From NCBI GenBank assembly GCA_964383765.1, contig CAYLHT010000003.1, positions 6,328-70,327 of the forward strand: a DNA stretch of 64,000 nucleotides. Reading direction: 5' to 3'. The stretch's first letter is position 1. Each line of letters begins with the position of its first letter. Of this stretch, positions 5,457 to 64,000 are shown one piece after another. The notes beneath the pieces are model-generated. The model worked only from the letters and a program-made list of their open reading frames with translations, made no database searches and was not told the DNA's origin. Made by a program: the position numbers and the translations under genes. This DNA is from an uncultured Gammaproteobacteria bacterium. GTDB taxonomy: Bacteria > Patescibacteriota > Patescibacteriia > SBBC01 > CAIJZX01.

Positions 5457-6546
5457 CGCTTCACGTATGCGCCTGTCGCGATGGTCAGTCATTTCTGTCT
5501 TCAGTCTCCTTGTGCTGAGTCTCGGGTTCGTGAGTCGCACGAATGCCACTACCACGAAAATTTCTGTTAGCCCAAGTTCGGCTACTCTGCAAGCTGGTCA
5601 TACCCAAACCTTTATTGTGACGGCCACGGATAGTACCGGAACAACGAAAGACGTCACTGCCGATTCGACGCTCTCATCAAATGACCCCAACGGCAAAGTC
5701 AGCGGCGCAACGTACACCGCCGGCCAAGTTGGCAATTGGACGATTCAAGTCGCCTACCAAAGCTTTGTGACAACCGCCAAAGTCAGTGTCAGTGCTGGCG
5801 ATGTGGCTGAGCTCGTGATTAACCCAAATTCAGATCCCGAAGTCATCTTAACTGGGACCAGAAAACGTTTTAGTGTTGAAGCCTTCGATGCCAAACACAA
5901 TCCACTCGACACCCCACACATCACCTGGAGCGTGATTGGAGCGATTGGCTCGATCGACAGTACGGGTGTCTTCACCCCAACTGGCATTGGCACCGGAAAA
6001 GTTCAGGCGCAATCTGATTCCGTCACCGGGCAAGTTGCCATTGAAGTTCGTCAGGCGCCCGTGACCAATACGAATTCATCCGTCACAACGAATACCAATA
6101 CCACCACGAACACAAATCGCCCGACGAACCGCAATACGAATTCGAGCAACACGAATTCGGCGACCAACGCGAACACCAATGTGGCCACGAATCAAAATAC
6201 GAACTCCTCCAACGTCAACGCGACCAACGCGAACACCAATACAAGTACTCTGGTAACCTCATCCCAGTGCACCTCGCTTAAACCCTGGGTTTGGACTGTG
6301 ATGCTGATTCTCTTCTTAATCCTCGTCGCCATCCTGTACGGCTTAGTACCAGTCACGAAAATCTGGCCAGTGGTGGTCGCCTTAATCAGCGCTGGCGTCC
6401 TAGCCTTTATTCAACGTAAGTACGACTGTAACCTGCAGACCTGGTGGGCGTGGGTGATTACACTCGGCACCGTCGCCTTGACCGCCTTAGCCATCCGCTC
6501 GAATCCAAGTACCGGCGGACAGAATCAAACGCCATCAAATTCCTAA
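5437..6546 (+). CDS. Secreted/membrane protein with a signal peptide, two Big_2-like Ig domains, a T/N-rich low-complexity linker and a C-terminal multi-TM anchor
   Basis: Translation shows a hydrophobic N-terminus, Ig-like motifs (ATYTAGQVGNWTIQV...), a TNTNSS repeat tract and C-terminal hydrophobic helices. Confidence 0.55.
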   Translation: MDILFHNASRMRLSRWSVISVFSLLVLSLGFVSRTNATTTKISVSPSSATLQAGHTQTFIVTATDSTGTTKDVTADSTLSSNDPNGKVSGATYTAGQVGNWTIQVAYQSFVTTAKVSVSAGDVAELVINPNSDPEVILTGTRKRFSVEAFDAKHNPLDTPHITWSVIGAIGSIDSTGVFTPTGIGTGKVQAQSDSVTGQVAIEVRQAPVTNTNSSVTTNTNTTTNTNRPTNRNTNSSNTNSATNANTNVATNQNTNSSNVNATNANTNTSTLVTSSQCTSLKPWVWTVMLILFLILVAILYGLVPVTKIWPVVVALISAGVLAFIQRKYDCNLQTWWAWVITLGTVALTALAIRSNPSTGGQNQTPSNS

Positions 6547-6555
6547 TCGATGAGA

Positions 6556-6589
6556 TACTCCGCCCCGGCCGTCACGGCCGGGGCGGTTG
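6556..6589. terminator. GC-rich hairpin (CCGCCCCGGCCG-TCAC-GGCCGGGGCGG) between convergent genes; likely a bidirectional terminator
   Basis: Perfect 11-12 bp inverted repeat seen directly between the 6546 (+) and 6593 (-) gene ends. Confidence 0.55.
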
Positions 6590-6592
6590 GTA

Positions 6593-7405
6593 TTAGTGCA
6601 ACCAAACAATCGCCAATACGGTCAGACCGAGAACGATCCGATACGCCGTAAACCACGCGTACGAATGACGACTGAGGAATCTGAGCAACGCCCGGATGAC
6701 AACGTACCCCACGATCGCCGCTACGGCCGCACCGACGATAAACGCTAACCGTTGATCGCTCGTTAATGATTCGTGACGAAGCTCAAAGAGTTTTTTCAGG
6801 ACCGCGCCAGCGGTGATTGGCGTGGCGAGTAAAAAAGAAAACCGCGCCGCCGACGGCCGGTCAAAACCTAGCCACCGCCCAGCGGTAATCGTCACCCCCG
6901 AACGTGAGATGCCCGGCACGACTGCGAACATTTGGGCTAGCCCAACCAAGAGCGCCTGCCACCACGTAATGCGATCCAACGCTCGGTCACTGCGACCAAA
7001 TCGATCGGCTAGCCAGAGGACAATACCCGCACCAATCAACGTTAGTGCCACGAGTGCGGGTTGCCGAAATGTGGATTCGGCCGCTGATTCAAGTAAAGCC
7101 CCCGCGATTGCGCCAGGAATGGTGGCAATCAATAGCCACCAAGCCAAGCGCTGATCCGGATCGGACATCTGCCAGCGGCCAAAATTCCGAAACCAGGATC
7201 GGACCAATCGCCACAGATCGTGCCAAAAGTACGCGAGTAAGGCCAACAGTGTACCCAGGTGGAGAGCCACATCAAACGTTAGATCATCGCCAACCGAAAA
7301 GTGTGTTATGCTGTGCAGGAGCAACAAGTGTCCGGAACTAGAAATTGGCAAGAATTCCGCTAGGCCCTGCACCGCCCCGAACAACGCCGCTTCACCAAGT
7401 ATCAT
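6593..7405 (-). CDS. uppP: Undecaprenyl-diphosphatase
   Basis: LAEFLPISSSGHL motif plus a multi-TM profile typical of UppP/BacA. Confidence 0.85.
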   Translation of the reverse strand: MILGEAALFGAVQGLAEFLPISSSGHLLLLHSITHFSVGDDLTFDVALHLGTLLALLAYFWHDLWRLVRSWFRNFGRWQMSDPDQRLAWWLLIATIPGAIAGALLESAAESTFRQPALVALTLIGAGIVLWLADRFGRSDRALDRITWWQALLVGLAQMFAVVPGISRSGVTITAGRWLGFDRPSAARFSFLLATPITAGAVLKKLFELRHESLTSDQRLAFIVGAAVAAIVGYVVIRALLRFLSRHSYAWFTAYRIVLGLTVLAIVWLH

Positions 7406-51495: not shown

Positions 51496-51812
51496 AGGCA
51501 GGAGGTGCAGTATACCGACCTCATCCAAACTCGCAACCCCCGGGCTTTCCCCAGGGCTGTTTATGGCCTAAAATCAAGTGCGAACTACAAAATCCGGGCA
51601 AGAGCATCTTTATCAACCCACACATATGGCTCGTGCCCAAACCTTTCATTGAGGTCAGTTTTTTGGTAGTTGTGAATCATGTAATCAATGACTCTGCTAG
51701 CATCAAGAGAATCGTCGATGTACCACCGGAAAAATCCACGTTGCCATACATTCCCAGCCGGAAGCGTGCGAGAGAATGTTCCTTTGATTGATCGCATCAA
51801 CTCCCACACCGC

Positions 51813-51834
51813 GGGTGGACTAGAAAGTCCACCC
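51813..51834. repeat. REP hairpin GGGTGGACTAGAAAGTCCACCC (inside the RAYT ORF)
   Basis: Perfect palindrome with a GGACT-AGAA-AGTCC core. Confidence 0.75.
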
Positions 51835-51864
51835 TCTCCCATAAAAATATTCCTCTCCTTGTTA

Positions 51865-51890
51865 GAGCGCGGACTTTCTAGTCCGCGCTC
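51865..51890. repeat. REP hairpin GAGCGCGGACTTTCTAGTCCGCGCTC (inverted partner, inside the RAYT ORF)
   Basis: Same core in the opposite orientation, 30 nt from the first. Confidence 0.75.
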
Positions 51891-52165
51891 AGATACAGAT
51901 GTTGTTACCAGAAGATGAACATGATCTGGCAATATGGCAAAGACCAACGGCGTAAACCCTTTTTGTAGAGATGCCATTCGAATCATAATGTTCAATCGCT
52001 CCGCTAACTTCGGATTGCCAAAAATCGGCCGACGGTTTTTCGTGACGGTAGTGATGAAATACAAATATGGAAAATCGGGGTCGGGCTGGATCATGGATGA
52101 ATGGCCGGCCAAACCACCTAACGCGGACAGTATATCGGATATTTCTTGGTTGTCAATCCTGTGCC

Positions 52166-52191
52166 GAGGGCAGACTGGAAAGTCTGCCCTC
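52166..52191. repeat. REP hairpin GAGGGCAGACTGGAAAGTCTGCCCTC
   Basis: Variant core GACTGGAAAGTC, upstream of the RAYT start. Confidence 0.7.
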
Positions 52192-52217: not shown

Positions 52218-52243
52218 GAGACCGGACTTTCTAGTCCGGTCTC
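52218..52243. repeat. REP hairpin GAGACCGGACTTTCTAGTCCGGTCTC (inverted partner)
   Basis: Same core in the opposite orientation, forming a second doublet between the RAYT and gyrB. Confidence 0.7.
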
Positions 52244-58737: not shown

Positions 58738-59439
58738 CTAAAACTGTTTCAAGAAATCGAGCTTGCCGCTGTAAAACAGTCTGACGTCGGGCACGCCGTA
58801 CTCAAGTAACGCTAATCGATCAAGACCCATCCCAAAGGCAAAACCTTGCCAGTCCTTTGGATCAAGTCCCATGTTGGTGATCACGGTCGGATGGACGAGG
58901 CCAGCCCCGAGAATTTCGAGCCACTGCTTTTTGCCATTGCGTTCCCATTCCACATCCAGCTCAATCCCTGGTTCCACGAATGGAAAAAAGCTTGGTCGGA
59001 CCCGTGATTTTTTTTCGGGATAGAGTTTGTGAATGAATGCATTCAACGTCGTCACTAAATTCGCCATGGAGACGTTCTGATCAACTAAAACTCCGTCACA
59101 TTGATGGAACATCGACTCATGCGTGGCGTCGGTCGCTTCATGCCGATAGACTTTACCAATTTCAACCACCTTGAATGGCGGTTTCGCGCCGTGGGTTTTC
59201 GGCCAGCGGAGTTGGACGTTTGAGGAATGCGTTCGCAAGACCAAGTCTGGACGATCTTTGATAAAAAAGGTGTCCTGAACATCGCGGGCTGGATGATCTT
59301 TAGGAACATTCAAGCCATCGAAGTTGAACCACTGCGTTTCAAGTTCAGGATTTTGGGCGATGTCATAGCCAAAACTCCGCCAGATCTCGAGCACCCGGCG
59401 GCTGAATTGGGTCAAGGGGTGAAGGTGGCCGCGGTCCAT
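58738..59439 (-). CDS. pheS: Phenylalanyl-tRNA synthetase alpha subunit, catalytic core only (no N-terminal coiled-coil domain)
   Basis: Class II motifs (…HPARDVQDTFFI…FRHEATDATHESMFHQCDGV…GAGLVHP…GFAFGMGLDRLA). Confidence 0.8.
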   Translation of the reverse strand: MDRGHLHPLTQFSRRVLEIWRSFGYDIAQNPELETQWFNFDGLNVPKDHPARDVQDTFFIKDRPDLVLRTHSSNVQLRWPKTHGAKPPFKVVEIGKVYRHEATDATHESMFHQCDGVLVDQNVSMANLVTTLNAFIHKLYPEKKSRVRPSFFPFVEPGIELDVEWERNGKKQWLEILGAGLVHPTVITNMGLDPKDWQGFAFGMGLDRLALLEYGVPDVRLFYSGKLDFLKQF

Positions 59440-59442
59440 AGT

Positions 59443-59931
59443 TTACGAAAGCGCGTGATCGGTTCGTTTGGGTTGGTTCGATTGTCCGGCCAAGAAAAAC
59501 ACTTCGATCACGATCACCAGCAGGCTTAAACTAATTCCTGACCAAATATTCAACCAGCGCGCTCCCTGCAACATCAACCCGATGATGGCACCGCTGCTGA
59601 TCAAAGTGGCTTGCCGCAAAGCTGTGCCAACTTGTCGGAACAAGACCTGTTCTTTTTCCAGCCACATGCGCAAGAAAAACCCAATCAGTGTGATGGTACC
59701 CAGCAAACTCAGCCACAAGCTCAAGTAAAACAAAGCCAGTGCCCCAGCCCCTCCTGTTTGGGGGTCAAGCGTCATCAGCACTATGGTCCACGTTCCCCAC
59801 GACAACAAAGTCCCAACAGACAGGAAGATAATAAACCTTATCAGCGACATAGCTGGGCATGAGTATACTGATTTCTTGGCGATTTGACAACTTTTCATCT
59901 CAGGAGTAGACCGGGAGAAGAGTCCTTTCAT
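59443..59931 (-). CDS. Hypothetical membrane protein (4 TM)
   Basis: ORF with hydrophobic helices. Confidence 0.35.
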   Translation of the reverse strand: MKGLFSRSTPEMKSCQIAKKSVYSCPAMSLIRFIIFLSVGTLLSWGTWTIVLMTLDPQTGGAGALALFYLSLWLSLLGTITLIGFFLRMWLEKEQVLFRQVGTALRQATLISSGAIIGLMLQGARWLNIWSGISLSLLVIVIEVFFLAGQSNQPKRTDHALS

Positions 59932-59957
59932 AACCGATTCGAATCATCAGAGAGGGG

Positions 59958-60500
59958 GTGTTGCGGATGACGCAGATTGGTGGTATCACCGAGTTCAGAC
60001 AAGTCATCGTCAAGCCGGAAGTACTGGTCGTTCCAAGCAAGATCGGTGGTCGGCTACCAAGTGACGGGATCAGTTGGCGCGTTCCGGTCAGTCCAAACGC
60101 GCCGGGCGCCATCCTCCCCCTGCTCGACGACTACTTGCTGGGGAAACACGAGTTGCTGGAAATGTTTGTCGCGCGTGTAGCGCACGTTGCTTCGGAAGCC
60201 TTGATCAATGCCGGTCGGTACGGTCTACCGGGCAGCGAGATGCAGGTCGGATGTAAAGTTGTCGGATTTGGTGACACCCGGCGCTGCACTGTCCAGGTGT
60301 TCCACTATGTCGCCCCGACGGTTGAGGTCTTTCCGCAGGGAACTGACATCCCCGCCCCCGATCAACAAGAGGCTTTAGAGAGAGGGGGTCGAGGCCTACC
60401 GATCATGAAGCAACGCGCCGACAGCTTCGCACTCGAAGACTTGCCTGGCAACGCCAAGGAAGTTACGCTGTCGTTCGACCTGAACAGTCCTATCCGCTAG
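59958..60500 (+). CDS. Anti-sigma-factor-like serine kinase (GHKL HATPase_c_2, RsbW/SpoIIAB-like)
   Basis: C-terminal ERGGRGLPIMKQRADSFALE matches the G-box region of RsbW-type kinases; no STAS partner is seen nearby. Confidence 0.45.
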   Translation: MLRMTQIGGITEFRQVIVKPEVLVVPSKIGGRLPSDGISWRVPVSPNAPGAILPLLDDYLLGKHELLEMFVARVAHVASEALINAGRYGLPGSEMQVGCKVVGFGDTRRCTVQVFHYVAPTVEVFPQGTDIPAPDQQEALERGGRGLPIMKQRADSFALEDLPGNAKEVTLSFDLNSPIR

Positions 60501-60589
60501 GACGAGGGGTTGGCGGACATATAGCGAGAGAAGACACTCGTAAGTCATCCACAGCACTACGCCTAGCAGTAGCTCGCCAGGCGGTTTTC

Positions 60590-60619
60590 TTGACAGTCCC
60601 GCTCTACGCCTGGTACTGT
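60590..60619 (+). promoter_or_regulatory. sigma70-like promoter TTGACA-18-TACTGT upstream of the candidate ncRNA
   Basis: Same hexamer pattern as the promoters at 25030 and 54419. Confidence 0.5.
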
Positions 60620-60625
60620 GCTCGA

Positions 60626-60885
60626 GGTTTGGTGGGCATGTAGCTCAATATAATGACACACGGGGATTCACACAGAGCGCTCCGTCGCGAGGACGGGGAG
60701 GTTGCTGGACAGCGCGCCAGCCATGCCCGCCGTAATGTACCGTGGTGGTGATGTGACTGAGTCTGGCGAAAGAAACCGGCCTGTGGATGCGTATTCGTGT
60801 GGGCCGCTGTGGAGATCGTAACGATGGGAGGCGATCCATCGTGCTCCGCTACCGGAGGTTCGAATCCTCCCTCACCACTGCGTTC
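60626..60885 (+). ncRNA. Candidate ~250-nt structured RNA whose 5' end (UGGUGGG) pairs with its 3' end (CUCACCA) next to a canonical T-arm (GGAGG-UUCGAAU-CCUCC); that is, a tRNA-like terminal domain (tmRNA-like architecture, but no tag ORF found)
   Basis: Promoter, 7-bp acceptor-like pairing with a G-U, a perfect T-arm, an internal hairpin CGATGG-GAGGCGAT-CCATCG, and no long ORF. Confidence 0.35.
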
Positions 60886-60986
60886 TTTTGACGGGATGGC
60901 CGAGACTCGAAGGCCGCGGCGTGAAAAACCGTGTTTCGTCGGTGAATCCGACTCCCGTCTCCAATGTTCTGTCTCAAATCAGATCG

Positions 60987-61063
60987 AGCCCCTCTAGCTC
61001 AGAGGTAGAGCGCCTGGGCGCGTCATCAACCAGGAGGTCTGCGGTTCGAATCCGCAGAGGGGC
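60987..61063 (+). tRNA. Non-canonical tRNA-like gene: normal acceptor, D and T arms, but a 12-nt anticodon loop (GCGCGTCATCAA) on a perfect CCTGG/CCAGG stem
   Basis: Manual cloverleaf; 77 nt; no encoded CCA. Possibly CAT or GTC in the loop; a 5-nt insertion or pseudogene. Confidence 0.45.
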
Positions 61064-61076
61064 TCAAGATTTCTTT

Positions 61077-61152
61077 AGGGCTGGTCGCTCAACAGGCTAG
61101 AGCACCGGGCACTAACCCCCGGAGGTAGGAGGTTCGAGTCCTCCCCAGCCCA
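61077..61152 (+). tRNA. Non-canonical tRNA-like gene: acceptor with one bulge, 9-nt D-loop, and an 8-nt anticodon loop CACUAACC (central CUA) on a perfect CCGGG/CCCGG stem
   Basis: Manual cloverleaf; T-arm GGAGG-TTCGAGT-CCTCC; discriminator A. Confidence 0.4.
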
Positions 61153-61157
61153 CAACT

Positions 61158-61185
61158 TCCCTGGGTCATCACGACCAGGGATTTT
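61158..61185 (+). terminator. Rho-independent terminator (CCCTGG-TCATCACGA-CCAGGG + ATTTTT) after the tRNA-like genes
   Basis: Hairpin plus T-run read directly. Confidence 0.65.
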
Positions 61186-61186
61186 T

Positions 61187-64000
61187 CTATACCGCTCTAA
61201 ATTCGCAAATCTCCCGGTAATCACAAAACTTACACACCATTTCACTCGGTGTAGCTCGGAAATCACCGGAGTGAATTTTTTTGATGGTTGAGCTGACCCA
61301 CTCTTTTGCTGCGGCTGAATCTTTTTCCGTCGGAGTCATTGTCCGCGATTCATTTTCATCAATAAAGTAATACTCGAGCTCCTTCACTTCAGCGTTGAGA
61401 ATATTTGGATCTTGCACGGCCAAGGCGTAAATCAGTAACTGATACTTATCATCTTTTTCGAACTTTTCCTTAACCTTCCCGGTTTTGTAATCCACGATTT
61501 TCACTTCGGGTTTTTCATTGGTTCCACCAATTTGATCAATTCGATCGACAGCTCCATTCACAACAAACTCATCAACTTTCAGATTGAACACTTGTTCTAG
61601 CCTGAGAACATTCGGCATAGCCTTGAGTATTTTCGCATACCACTCGGTCAATGCCTGTTTGCCCTTGTCATAATATTCATTCTTCAATTTCTTTTTCGGA
61701 TACCATTCATCGATAAAGCACCGATCGTACATGGTCAGCAACTCTTCTTCGCTTACAGTTTGACCGTCTTTGGCCCGCTCTTTCCAGAGCGCGAAAAAGT
61801 TGAACAGTGTTTTGTGAACTGACGAACCATACGATAATGCATAGCTCCCCTTCTTCGGAACTTGAAGCACAAAAGCGTAGCGGTATTTCCAGGGACAATC
61901 GTTGTAGGTTGAGAGCTTAGTGAAACTGTATTGTTTTTCACGCGCGACGTACGCAACCACTTCTTTTTTCTGTTTGGGTGTGGGCTTGAATTCACGGGCC
62001 GGTAATGGCAATTTCTTCTCGGCCGCTACGGGTGGTTTCAGTAAACCCAGCTCATACATAAATGCTGACGGTTTTTTCCGACGCTGACCACCGTAATCTT
62101 CGGCTAAGGTAAAAAACACACCGTTCCGAGCCCGCGTGATCGCGACGTACATCAAGCGTCGTTCTTCTTGGACGTGCGCGTCACCCGTGGGTAAGATTTC
62201 ACGTACTAAAGCATCCGGCACTGGAATCGGATCTTTACGATCCATGCCTGGAAAGCGCTGTTCGACAACATTACCGATAAACACGTATGGAAATTCGAGT
62301 CCTTTGGCCGAATGGATCGTCATAATTTTGATTGTGTCCGGCCCGGACGATTCCAGGTCATGCTCAAGTCCGCCGGCGTCACCTGACTCAGTGACATGGT
62401 CAATGTATTTCAGAAACGATTTGACCGTCGCTGGCCGTTCACCTTGTTGAAAAGTTTCAATAACTTTAAAGAGTTGTTTCAAGTAACTTGTCTGTTCATG
62501 CGTTTCCGCGGTTTCTTTTTTCGTAATCTCTTGCAAATATCCAGAATCATTCAGGAATTGGAGGAGTACTTCACCAACAGATTTTGTGTTGGCTAACTCA
62601 GTGTGAGCCTGAATTAGGCTTTTGATTTTTTTGACGCCGGCCCGAGTTGCATCGGAAATAGTGATGTCATCATGCAGCAATTGCTCATACAACGACCGAT
62701 TTTTCTTTTTGGCTTGATAGGAAAGTTCGACGACATCACCGTGATCAATCCCGAACACTGGAATAGCCAGTACGCGATACAACGCCGCGCTTTCGTGATA
62801 ATTATCAAGCAACCGTAAATACGCTAACAGGTCGATCACCAACGGTTTCGTGAATAATCCCCGCGCCGCTAAGAACACGTGCGGCATTCCCCGACGTTCG
62901 AATTCATTGATAAAAATTTGGGCGTGATCGTTGGCACGAACCAAAACACAAAATGAATCCCAACCCACGACGTTCCCCTCCTTGTCTAAGGAGGGGTGGC
63001 CGGAGGCCGGGGTGGTCAGGGCGCGCGATCGAAGTTCCTCAACCTTATCCGCCACCGCGCGTGCCTCCGCCTCTTGTGTATCAACATGAATCACGCCGAT
63101 CTCCCCATTTCCCTCTCGCTGCGCCTTCAATTTCTTCACAATCGCCATGCCGCCGAACAGTTCTTTCTTCGCTTCCAATCGGTCCGGATTATTATGTTGG
63201 ATAAAGGTATGGGCTAAATCGAGAATCGACTGCTTGGTTCGATAGTTTTTCGTGAGTACAATCACTTCGGCGTCGGCAAAGTCCTTTTTGAATTCAAGGA
63301 TATTTGACACAGATGCTCCACGAAACTTATAGATCGATTGGTCATCATCACCGACCACGGTCAAATTGTTCCGTGGCTTGGCTAGACGTTTAATCAACTC
63401 GTACTGCGCCCAGTTCGTGTCTTGGAATTCGTCAACCAGAATGTATTGGAATTGCTGCTGGTATTTTTTGAGAATTGCCGGCCGTTCGCGCAACAAACGT
63501 AACGTGTACAAGATCAGGTCACCAAAGTCTAAGGCGTTGTTATCGAGCAATAATTGATTGTATGTATCATAGGCTTTTGCAAGTTCCATTATTCGGGCGG
63601 CCTCAGCTTTCTCTTCGTCAGTAGTTTTGTTTTTCGACAGAGTCTTTGCGTATTTCAAATATTCCGCCGGTGAAATGTCTTCATCTTTAAGTCGCGAAAA
63701 ATGTTTGACCAGCGCGGTAATGAATTTCGTCGGATTCCCAAGCGGGCGATAATAGTCCAAATCAAAGTCATCAAGATGTTCCCGAATCAATAGCCACTGG
63801 TCGGTTTGGGACAACAACTTGAAGTCATTCGACAACCCAATATCGAGTGCGTGTTCTTTCAGTAACCGCTGTCCAAGGCTGTGAAATGTCATCACCCATA
63901 GATCAACATACCCAAACGGTAAAATCCGCTCGACCCGATCCTGCATTTCACCGGCAGCTTTATTGGTAAACGTCAACGCTAAAATATTATCCGACGGCAC
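61187..64000 (-). CDS. UvrD/PcrA-family ATP-dependent helicase fused to a C-terminal PD-(D/E)XK/Cas4-like nuclease domain with a Cys cluster; N-terminus lies beyond the window end. Carries an in-frame palindromic insertion.
   Basis: Helicase motifs (LALTFTNKAAGEM, ILVDEFQDTN, VVGDDDQSIY, TIHSAKGLEF), a C-terminal ...CKFCDYREIC Fe-S-like cluster, and the insert at 62970-63025. Confidence 0.75.
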   Translation of the reverse strand: MPSDNILALTFTNKAAGEMQDRVERILPFGYVDLWVMTFHSLGQRLLKEHALDIGLSNDFKLLSQTDQWLLIREHLDDFDLDYYRPLGNPTKFITALVKHFSRLKDEDISPAEYLKYAKTLSKNKTTDEEKAEAARIMELAKAYDTYNQLLLDNNALDFGDLILYTLRLLRERPAILKKYQQQFQYILVDEFQDTNWAQYELIKRLAKPRNNLTVVGDDDQSIYKFRGASVSNILEFKKDFADAEVIVLTKNYRTKQSILDLAHTFIQHNNPDRLEAKKELFGGMAIVKKLKAQREGNGEIGVIHVDTQEAEARAVADKVEELRSRALTTPASGHPSLDKEGNVVGWDSFCVLVRANDHAQIFINEFERRGMPHVFLAARGLFTKPLVIDLLAYLRLLDNYHESAALYRVLAIPVFGIDHGDVVELSYQAKKKNRSLYEQLLHDDITISDATRAGVKKIKSLIQAHTELANTKSVGEVLLQFLNDSGYLQEITKKETAETHEQTSYLKQLFKVIETFQQGERPATVKSFLKYIDHVTESGDAGGLEHDLESSGPDTIKIMTIHSAKGLEFPYVFIGNVVEQRFPGMDRKDPIPVPDALVREILPTGDAHVQEERRLMYVAITRARNGVFFTLAEDYGGQRRKKPSAFMYELGLLKPPVAAEKKLPLPAREFKPTPKQKKEVVAYVAREKQYSFTKLSTYNDCPWKYRYAFVLQVPKKGSYALSYGSSVHKTLFNFFALWKERAKDGQTVSEEELLTMYDRCFIDEWYPKKKLKNEYYDKGKQALTEWYAKILKAMPNVLRLEQVFNLKVDEFVVNGAVDRIDQIGGTNEKPEVKIVDYKTGKVKEKFEKDDKYQLLIYALAVQDPNILNAEVKELEYYFIDENESRTMTPTEKDSAAAKEWVSSTIKKIHSGDFRATPSEMVCKFCDYREICEFRAV

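Follow-up and report, generated by a model that had tools for sequence, protein, structure and literature searches.

The DNA analysed here, a 64,000-nucleotide stretch (the window) of contig CAYLHT010000003.1, contains an operon at 60590–61186 (~560 nt) in which five cloverleaf RNAs, units A to E, none of them fully canonical, are encoded on the plus strand between one promoter and one terminator. We are concerned mainly with the front of this operon, 60590–60885, which a preliminary description had taken for the promoter and the gene of a single ~250-nt RNA resembling tmRNA. The operon occupies a slot flanked by a gene (61187 to the end of the window) whose product joins a UvrD-type helicase to a PD-(D/E)XK nuclease, and the order helicase, variable slot, small HATPase_c_2-like open reading frame (ORF), pheS and pheT is kept across relatives. 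A database search with the HATPase-like ORF as protein anchor returned only itself, and neither this ORF nor PheS had an exact match; the helicase served as the anchor for relatives. It has ~40 homologues sharing 63–82% identity, and ten of these loci were retrieved for comparison of gene order and slot content (individual loci are given below by L numbers). PheS (58738–59439, minus strand) is 78–83% identical to the proteins of three metagenome-assembled genomes, two of which are named Candidatus Kerfeldbacteria, and the next-best matches, at ~50% identity, come from other Patescibacteria; judged from these matches, the host genome is that of a Candidatus Kerfeldbacteria member (Patescibacteria/candidate phyla radiation).

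The promoter consists of TTGACA (60590–60595), an 18-nt spacer and TACTGT (60614–60619), just as it had been described. A generic sigma-70 scan did not call it at 60590–60619, because the −10 hexamer matches TATAAT at only three of six positions. The prediction is nevertheless supported by conservation: a TTGACA/G/T-N17/18-TAnnnT motif, mostly TAnnGT, heads the syntenic slot in L001–L003, L127, L128, L130, L132–L134, L255 and L256, the first promoter of L256 having CATTAT instead of TAnnnT; the slot promoter could not be placed in L129 or L131. At the other end the operon is closed by a terminator-like hairpin, CCCUGG-(10 nt)-CCAGGG followed by AUUUUU (61159–61186, plus strand), which the terminator scan omits because the loop exceeds 8 nt. 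An equivalent hairpin and U-run terminate the arrays of L001, L003, L127, L129 and L131–L134.

Standard tools are almost silent on the front part of the operon. ARAGORN predicted seven tRNAs in the whole window and nothing inside 60590–60885. Rfam 15, run both at gathering threshold and at E≤10 on 60450–61000, gave no match in 60590–60885 at the gathering thresholds; at E≤10 the sole relevant match was a weak tRNA at 60747–60877 (16.3 bits against a threshold of 29, E=1.6), which takes as its 5′ strand the nearer GGUGAUG. The best other Rfam match, to a plastid 3′UTR family on the minus strand, proved to be a T arm read backwards, and riboswitch models gave no relevant match. The minimum-energy structure of 60626–60880 consists of two adjacent cloverleaves, not one closed RNA, and these correspond to units A and B.

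Unit A (60634–60729, plus strand) reads GGGCAUG UA GCUC (28-nt D loop) GAGC G CUCCGUC-GCGAG-GACGGGG AGGUU GCUGG-ACAGCGCG-CCAGC CAUGCCC G, and its cloverleaf, which emerges from the minimum-energy fold alone, is supported by homologues and by a stem alignment. It retains the 7-bp acceptor stem, the D stem and the 5-bp T stem of a tRNA, together with U8-A14, R15-Y48, A21 and G26. It departs from a tRNA in its 28-nt D loop, in a closed 7-bp hairpin with the loop GCGAG that replaces the anticodon arm, and in an 8-nt T loop, ACAGCGCG, that is not of the tRNA type. The leader UGGU (60630–60633) can pair with the trailer GCCG (60729–60732). Neither ARAGORN nor Rfam detected unit A. Homologues are present in L133, where the unit lies downstream of unit B, in L134 and L127, and in L129 and L256; the L129 version has normal D and T loops and a long closed hairpin at the anticodon position.

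Unit B (60747–60877, plus strand) is a longer mimic of a class II tRNA, identified by the weak Rfam match, folds, homologues and a stem alignment. Its acceptor strands are GGUGAUG and C-UCACC, with one bulged U, followed by A73, and the helix can be lengthened by pairing of 60741–60751 with 60872–60882. The D arm has 3 bp and a 12-nt loop containing GG, the variable arm comprises 41 nt (60809–60849), and the T arm is the canonical GGAGG-UUCGAAU-CCUCC (60854–60870), which had been recognized in the preliminary description and can now be assigned to this unit. The D-loop GG, the UUCGAAU T loop and A73 give it the look of a Tyr-, Ser- or Leu-type tRNA. At the anticodon position, by comparison, lies a closed 30-nt arm (60777–60806) made of 6 bp, an internal loop, 5 bp and a UAUU loop. 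Homologues were found in L001, L133 and L131; that of L001 is collinear and stands directly behind the promoter, the upstream 110 nt being absent. All four copies share the 5′ motif UGGU followed by GGYGAUG UG CCYGAG, a class-II-type D arm of 3 bp with a 9–12-nt loop containing GG, a very long variable arm that rises from a 6-bp basal stem, and the canonical T arm, which is invariant. A73 is present in all but L131, where it is U, and L133 encodes ACCA. None of the four has a normal anticodon arm: the arm of L131 ends in a CAGA tetraloop and that of L001 in AAGG or an 8-nt loop, and in L133 the loop UUAAGGG sits on a nine-position stem with one mismatch (U-C).

Alignments of the homologues indicate that these shapes are constrained. 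Since full-unit MAFFT alignments misplaced the variable arms, we used hand-built alignments of the stems only, with filler loops. For unit A (five sequences, 26 pairs), 93.8% of the cells pair and both sides change in 15 of the 26 pairs, a result reached by none of 500 shuffles, and slid controls pair at 28–43%. U8, A14 and G26 are invariant in the five homologues, and the tertiary (Levitt) pair 15-48 covaries, being A-U in three and G-C in two; A21 was read off the raw D-loop sequences, its alignment column being a placeholder. For unit B (four sequences, 30 pairs), 95% of the cells pair and both sides change in 16/30, again in none of 500 shuffles, with slid controls at 35–55%; covariation extends to every one of the six pairs in the basal stem of the variable arm. 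The compensatory changes that run through the stems of both units, beyond what shuffles and slid controls give, argue that the stems are under selection. A strict three-stem scan of 4.87 kb of array strands from 11 genomes yielded 19 cloverleaves, nine of them with non-canonical T loops, against 0.22 in shuffles; a scan of this kind across PheS loci from other Patescibacteria (865 kb) gave only scattered low-scoring matches, none clustered.

The two units also travel separately. Unit B occurs without unit A in L001 and L131, unit A without unit B in L127, L134 and L256, and in L133 unit B precedes unit A; because the units occur singly or in reversed order, 60626–60885 is best read as two independent genes. 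A canonical anticodon arm (5-bp stem, 7-nt loop, U33 and a purine at 37) is absent from both. We regard units A and B as non-decoding since they have no 7-nt anticodon loop and since the loops found in that place vary in length and sequence between homologues. Taken at the level of sequence comparison, the interval is thus seen to hold two predicted tRNA-shaped genes that are independent, conserved and structurally constrained, neither with an anticodon loop. The explanation that we consider probable, with some confidence, is that 60590–60885 forms the front of a promoter-to-terminator operon of five cloverleaf genes, of which it holds two, A and B, encoding non-decoding tRNA mimics.

The reading of the interval as a divergent or minimal tmRNA (ssrA), one ~250-nt RNA whose ends pair beside the T arm, started from genuine features. 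A promoter lies just upstream as for an expressed gene, the T arm adjoins a 3′ acceptor strand, and this 7-nt strand has a 7/7 complement 248 nt upstream. Pairing of UGGUGGG (60630–60636) with CUCACCA is indeed possible at all seven positions with one G-U, the latter strand lying at 60871–60877 and not, as had been given, at 60869–60875, but the meaning attached to the pairing did not survive. A full 7-bp partner for CUCACCA (G-U allowed) is found within 297 nt upstream in 9.7% of dinucleotide shuffles, and the end pairing is not conserved; the partner conserved in homologues is a nearer strand, 60741–60752, with 11 of 12 pairs. UGGUGGG comprises the leader of unit A and the first three bases of its acceptor, and because it overlaps this better-supported stem, it cannot serve both structures at once. 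The ~230 nt between the two strands contain hairpins and no meaningful ORF, as had been stated, but the hairpins are the arms of two cloverleaves. GCN-stop and GCN-GCN-stop are absent from every frame of 60626–60885, which bears out the earlier failure to find an Ala-Ala-stop tag. The distal pairing would give U1-A72, G2-C71 and G3-C70 and the proximal pairing G1-C72, G2-C71 and U3-A70; the G3-U70 pair of tmRNA appears in neither, and the interval lacks a pseudoknot-rich body. ARAGORN found no tmRNA in the window, and Rfam models for tmRNA (alpha, beta, cyano and mt), RNase P and Y RNA did not match even at E≤10. Some relatives, moreover, carry the 3′ half without the 5′ half, or the halves in reversed order; these comparative data have already refuted the tmRNA reading, and we give it practically no credence. 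The fallback offered in the preliminary description, a tRNA-like noncoding RNA, was right in kind, except that two RNAs take the place of one.

An intron could also account for an oversized tRNA-related locus, the interval then being a tRNA gene from which a group I intron is spliced to restore a normal tRNA. Nakagawa et al. (2026) described Patescibacteria tRNA genes with self-splicing group I introns of >200 nt in the anticodon loop; such introns are frequent in this phylum, some evade both RF00028 and ARAGORN (PMC13011429), and the 248-nt span is of group I size. The likeness extends to the phylum and to the fact that tRNA-related genes are missed by standard tools owing to extra sequence. 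Whereas their genes splice to normal tRNAs, however, here the D loop, the variable region and the anticodon-position arm carry the extra sequence as short hairpins. The extra segments, at 20–45 nt, are far under group I size, and excising them yields no anticodon loop. The 5′ flank after UGGUGGG has neither a D arm nor an anticodon stem, and the flanks do not assemble into a tRNA; RF00028 gave no match at E≤10, and the interval resolves into two complete cloverleaves. An intron is accordingly very improbable.

A further possibility is that unit B, and perhaps others, are real if unusual decoding tRNAs, of the allo-tRNA or tRNA-Sec-like kind, that serve recoding or mistranslation. Allo-tRNAs with long variable arms can work in translation (PMC5389517). 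The unit B of L133 has a 7-nt loop, UUAAGGG, with U33 and R37 as well as an encoded ACCA end, and L129 carries a 144-nt unit with a canonical CUUCGAC loop (anticodon UCG) and a ~75-nt variable-region insert that scores 44.4 bits on the Rfam tRNA-Sec model, just below the threshold of 47. In addition, the arrays of relatives include tRNAs with CUA or UCA anticodons. The L133 loop, however, rests on nine stacked positions with one U-C mismatch instead of the usual 5 bp; the window, L131 and L001 copies have no 7-nt loop on an ordinary stem, as described above, and the loop sequence is not conserved among the four. Units A and B of the window have a 7/5 arrangement of acceptor and T stems, in contrast to the 8/4 or 9/3 of allo-tRNAs proper with their tRNA-Sec-like D arm, and the D arm of unit B has 3 bp and a 12-nt loop, not 6 bp and a 4-nt loop. 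The tRNA-Sec model (8/5, UCA; RF01852) had no match in the window. We therefore think it improbable that unit B decodes, and we keep to the interpretation that units A and B are non-decoding mimics.

The remaining units of the operon are irregular as well. Unit C (60890–60959, plus strand, 70 nt), identified by cloverleaf scans and a homologue in L003 (4754–4685, minus strand), reads GACGGGA UG GCC GAGACUCGAA GGC CGCGG-CGUGAAAAA-CCGUG UUUC GUCGG-UGAAU-CCGAC UCCCGUC, so that its T loop has 5 nt, UGAAU, and its anticodon arm ends in a loop of 9 nt. A similar T loop is found in L129 (7498–7420, minus strand); unit C and its relatives have UGAAU or CGAAU as the T loop and an 8–9-nt loop including UGAAAA. 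ARAGORN and Rfam failed to detect unit C. Unit D (60988–61063, plus strand) was labelled tRNA-Thr(CGU) by both tools (54.2 bits in Rfam) and was also found in the four-stem scan, in which its anticodon arm, CCUGG-GCGCGUCAUCAA-CCAGG, amounts to 22 nt with a 12-nt loop; the syntenic tRNA-Thr(CGU) of L127 and L129 has the canonical loop CUCGUAA. Unit E (61078–61151, plus strand), found by ARAGORN, Rfam and the scans, has an 8-nt anticodon loop, CACUAACC, and is listed by ARAGORN as 'tRNA-???, ctaa'; its homologue in L131 (7577–7504) retains the stems and has the loop GCUGCGC. An odd gene in last place is seen in further genomes: that of L003 (4653–4583) has a clean amber-suppressor loop, CUCUAAA, with the anticodon CUA, and that of L001 (4659–4590) is a degenerate tRNA with UCA. 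Stop-codon recoding was not evident in the window's long ORFs.

Several observations weigh against our interpretation, and a number of them are taken up by its most serious alternative, namely, that mobile elements, by integrating and excising repeatedly at tRNA genes, have left behind duplicated tRNAs in decay or scars of att sites, which are still transcribed because a promoter precedes them but have no function of their own. The cargo of the slot differs in nearly every related genome, consisting of varied mixes of A, B, C and ordinary tRNAs. In L133 the 3′ end of unit B, UCGAAUCCUUCCAUCGCCAC, recurs as a direct repeat of ~24 nt at a distance of ~150 nt on the downstream side of the complete unit (~5255–5232 and ~5115–5092, minus strand), which resembles an att site duplicated when an element integrates; with the varying slot content, the repeat lends some support to the att site that had been mentioned earlier as a fallback. 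RNA genes are replaced by a GIY-YIG endonuclease-like ORF (6563–6925) in the slot of L128 and by an 88-amino-acid (aa) ORF (6022–6288) in that of L255, both headed by the same promoter type. The T loop of a tRNA-like gene in L130 (~8280–8075, minus strand) is broken between UUC and GAAU by a ~70-nt insert, whose inner unit (8167–8103) forms a cloverleaf of its own on a closing stem of 10 bp; one cloverleaf is thus nested in another. (An archaeal bulge-helix-bulge intron was considered for this insert and rejected, because the single-stranded segments form a facing 3×4 internal loop, not bulges 4 bp apart.) Unit B of the window, which has a canonical T arm and the D-loop GG and scores 16.3 bits against the 29-bit threshold, shows a bulge or deletion in its acceptor stem and an A-A mismatch within the D stem, and these two defects may point to decay. 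Further reservations concern the evidence itself. The stem alignments were hand-assembled from four to five sequences and are biased towards structure, and part of the covariation could stem from different parental tRNAs, not from later selection. The folding energy of 60626–60880 is no better than that of shuffles (plus-strand z = +0.61, minus-strand z = −0.14), although such an unexceptional single-sequence energy is uninformative on structure, and we infer the processing and function of the units from sequence.

Decay accounts poorly for other properties of the array. The parts that are foreign to tRNA, namely the variable arms of 41–45 nt, the anticodon-position hairpins and a D-loop hairpin in L133, are perfectly paired with genome-specific sequences, and every stem shows compensatory changes. 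Genomes that share only ~77–80% identity in their helicases nevertheless have the same unit A ends, and promoter and terminator have been retained. We judge decay to be the less probable account, though one with appreciable weight; even if it held, the locus would still be a clear case of a tRNA-gene recombination hotspot.

If the units are indeed mimics, their expression may be pictured as follows. The layout suggests that the five units are co-transcribed and that the precursor is cut by RNase P and by 3′ processing enzymes. Most copies of units A and B have a U at −1, just before G1, and what is established about bacterial RNase P substrates suggests that this base would favour cleavage. 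The released RNAs would, as our best guess, be non-decoding tRNA mimics and not translation adaptors; they could act as decoys, or as carriers for enzymes that read the acceptor/T part or the core shape of tRNA. The slot itself would be a hotspot of recombination, its cargo being reshuffled from one close relative to the next. A bolder proposal, which we put forward only tentatively and would sooner doubt than assert, is that selection maintains in this clade a dedicated operon whose tRNA-shaped products no longer decode and would constitute a new class of bacterial tRNA mimics with a non-translational job. In that event the tRNA core and acceptor end would have been kept, closed hairpins would have replaced the anticodon loop (and, in certain units, the T loop as well), and the variable arm would have grown to 41–45 nt. 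Candidate jobs would include decoys for tRNA-targeting nucleases or toxins and carriers for acceptor-end enzymes, and the fast turnover of cargo between strains would suggest a role driven by conflict.

Some known RNAs invite comparison. YrlA (RF02553) is likewise a noncoding RNA having a tRNA-like domain with a T arm and a D arm. In the RNA of Chen et al. (2014) the ends reportedly close a stem that replaces the anticodon stem, whereas here the ends close the acceptor stem beside the T arm. The Y RNA and YrlA models (RF00019 and RF02553) had no match in the window, and in relatives gave only sub-threshold matches over ordinary tRNAs. A precedent for a tRNA-like RNA outside translation is tRNA-Other of Bacillus cereus, a chromosomal pseudo-tRNA beside a genomic island boundary (Rogers et al., 2012; PMC3399842), and bacterial pseudo-tRNAs can have regulatory roles (PMC3399842). 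This is an analogy only; tRNA-Other comes from one gene, is close to normal in size and has an anticodon loop, and it has no sequence relationship to the units described here.

The closest precedent is the set of polycistrons of irregular and suppressor tRNA-like sequences that Mukai et al. (2017, Nucleic Acids Research; PMC5389517) found in soil metatranscriptomes. There, too, several non-canonical cloverleaves are transcribed together (co-transcription here being suggested by the layout), and the two systems share long variable arms, extra loops and altered acceptor/T proportions, as in a unit of L002 with an 8/4 arrangement. Common to both are also array members of the nonsense-suppressor type, members judged non-translational, and mobile or variable loci. 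The earlier set is Acidobacteria-like, lies near toxin-antitoxin genes and mostly has a normal anticodon loop. In contrast, the present array belongs to a Patescibacteria host, units A and B have closed hairpins in place of anticodon loops, unit A is without a tRNA-type T loop, and variable arms as long as 41–45 nt occur; PADLOC, NCBIfam and Pfam revealed nothing specific to defence or toxin-antitoxin systems adjoining the array. Our literature search found no paper combining Patescibacteria and 'tRNA-like'.

Because units A, B and C escape tRNA finders and Rfam entirely, and units D and E are given wrong labels by them, annotations of this lineage hide the RNA operon and may misstate tRNA repertoires, as in the case of the 'tRNA-Thr(CGU)' with its 12-nt anticodon loop. 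Should the units prove functional, the small set of bacterial non-decoding tRNA mimics would extend into the reduced genomes of Patescibacteria, where each retained gene is informative. They would also provide a natural series on what the tRNA fold needs, from units with the core kept and the elbow lost, to units with the elbow kept and the anticodon lost, to those with giant variable arms.

Scans of metagenome and viral sequences with GATGTGNCTGAG-N70-100-GGTTCRAWTCC gave 46 matches, among which there were no close relatives of unit B; they were a mix of chance matches, tandem tRNAs and unrelated tRNA-like genes with long variable arms. Examples of the last kind are on two metagenome contigs, L086 and L107 (WNFM01205271.1 and WNFN01228694.1), from an organism unrelated to the window: the tRNA has a normal anticodon arm, CCGAA-CUUUAAA-UUCGG (anticodon UUA, the ochre suppressor type), its variable arm measures ~44 nt, and its CCA end is encoded. 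A viral scan with GGGCATGTAGCTCA returned mainly 14-mers that matched coding DNA by chance, along with various normal tRNAs. It also led to an irregular tRNA-like gene on a high-GC viral contig (L155, 3151–3225 and 4209–4288; IMG/VR IMGVR_UViG_3300019487_000078). This contig has an amber-suppressor-type tRNA (CUA) and an irregular tRNA that shares the acceptor/D sequence of unit A and has a long closed hairpin for an anticodon arm, with other odd tRNA-like units alongside.

The G+C content of 59900–61200, which covers the HATPase-like ORF and the RNA array, is 56–60%, compared with 44–52% in the flanking genes, and fits either structured RNA genes or an acquired island. PheS is short in the window (233 aa) and in several relatives (233–239 aa), its N-terminal domain being absent; the proteins of L128 and L256 are longer (326–329 aa) and have PF02912. 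Elsewhere in the window, four copies of a palindromic hairpin (~51813–51835, 51868–51888, 52168–52190 and 52221–52243), with the core GGACUUUCUAGUCC or a variant, sit in and around a 175-aa ORF (51585–52112, minus strand), and the hairpins and the ORF may constitute a REP-like repeat family with its associated gene.

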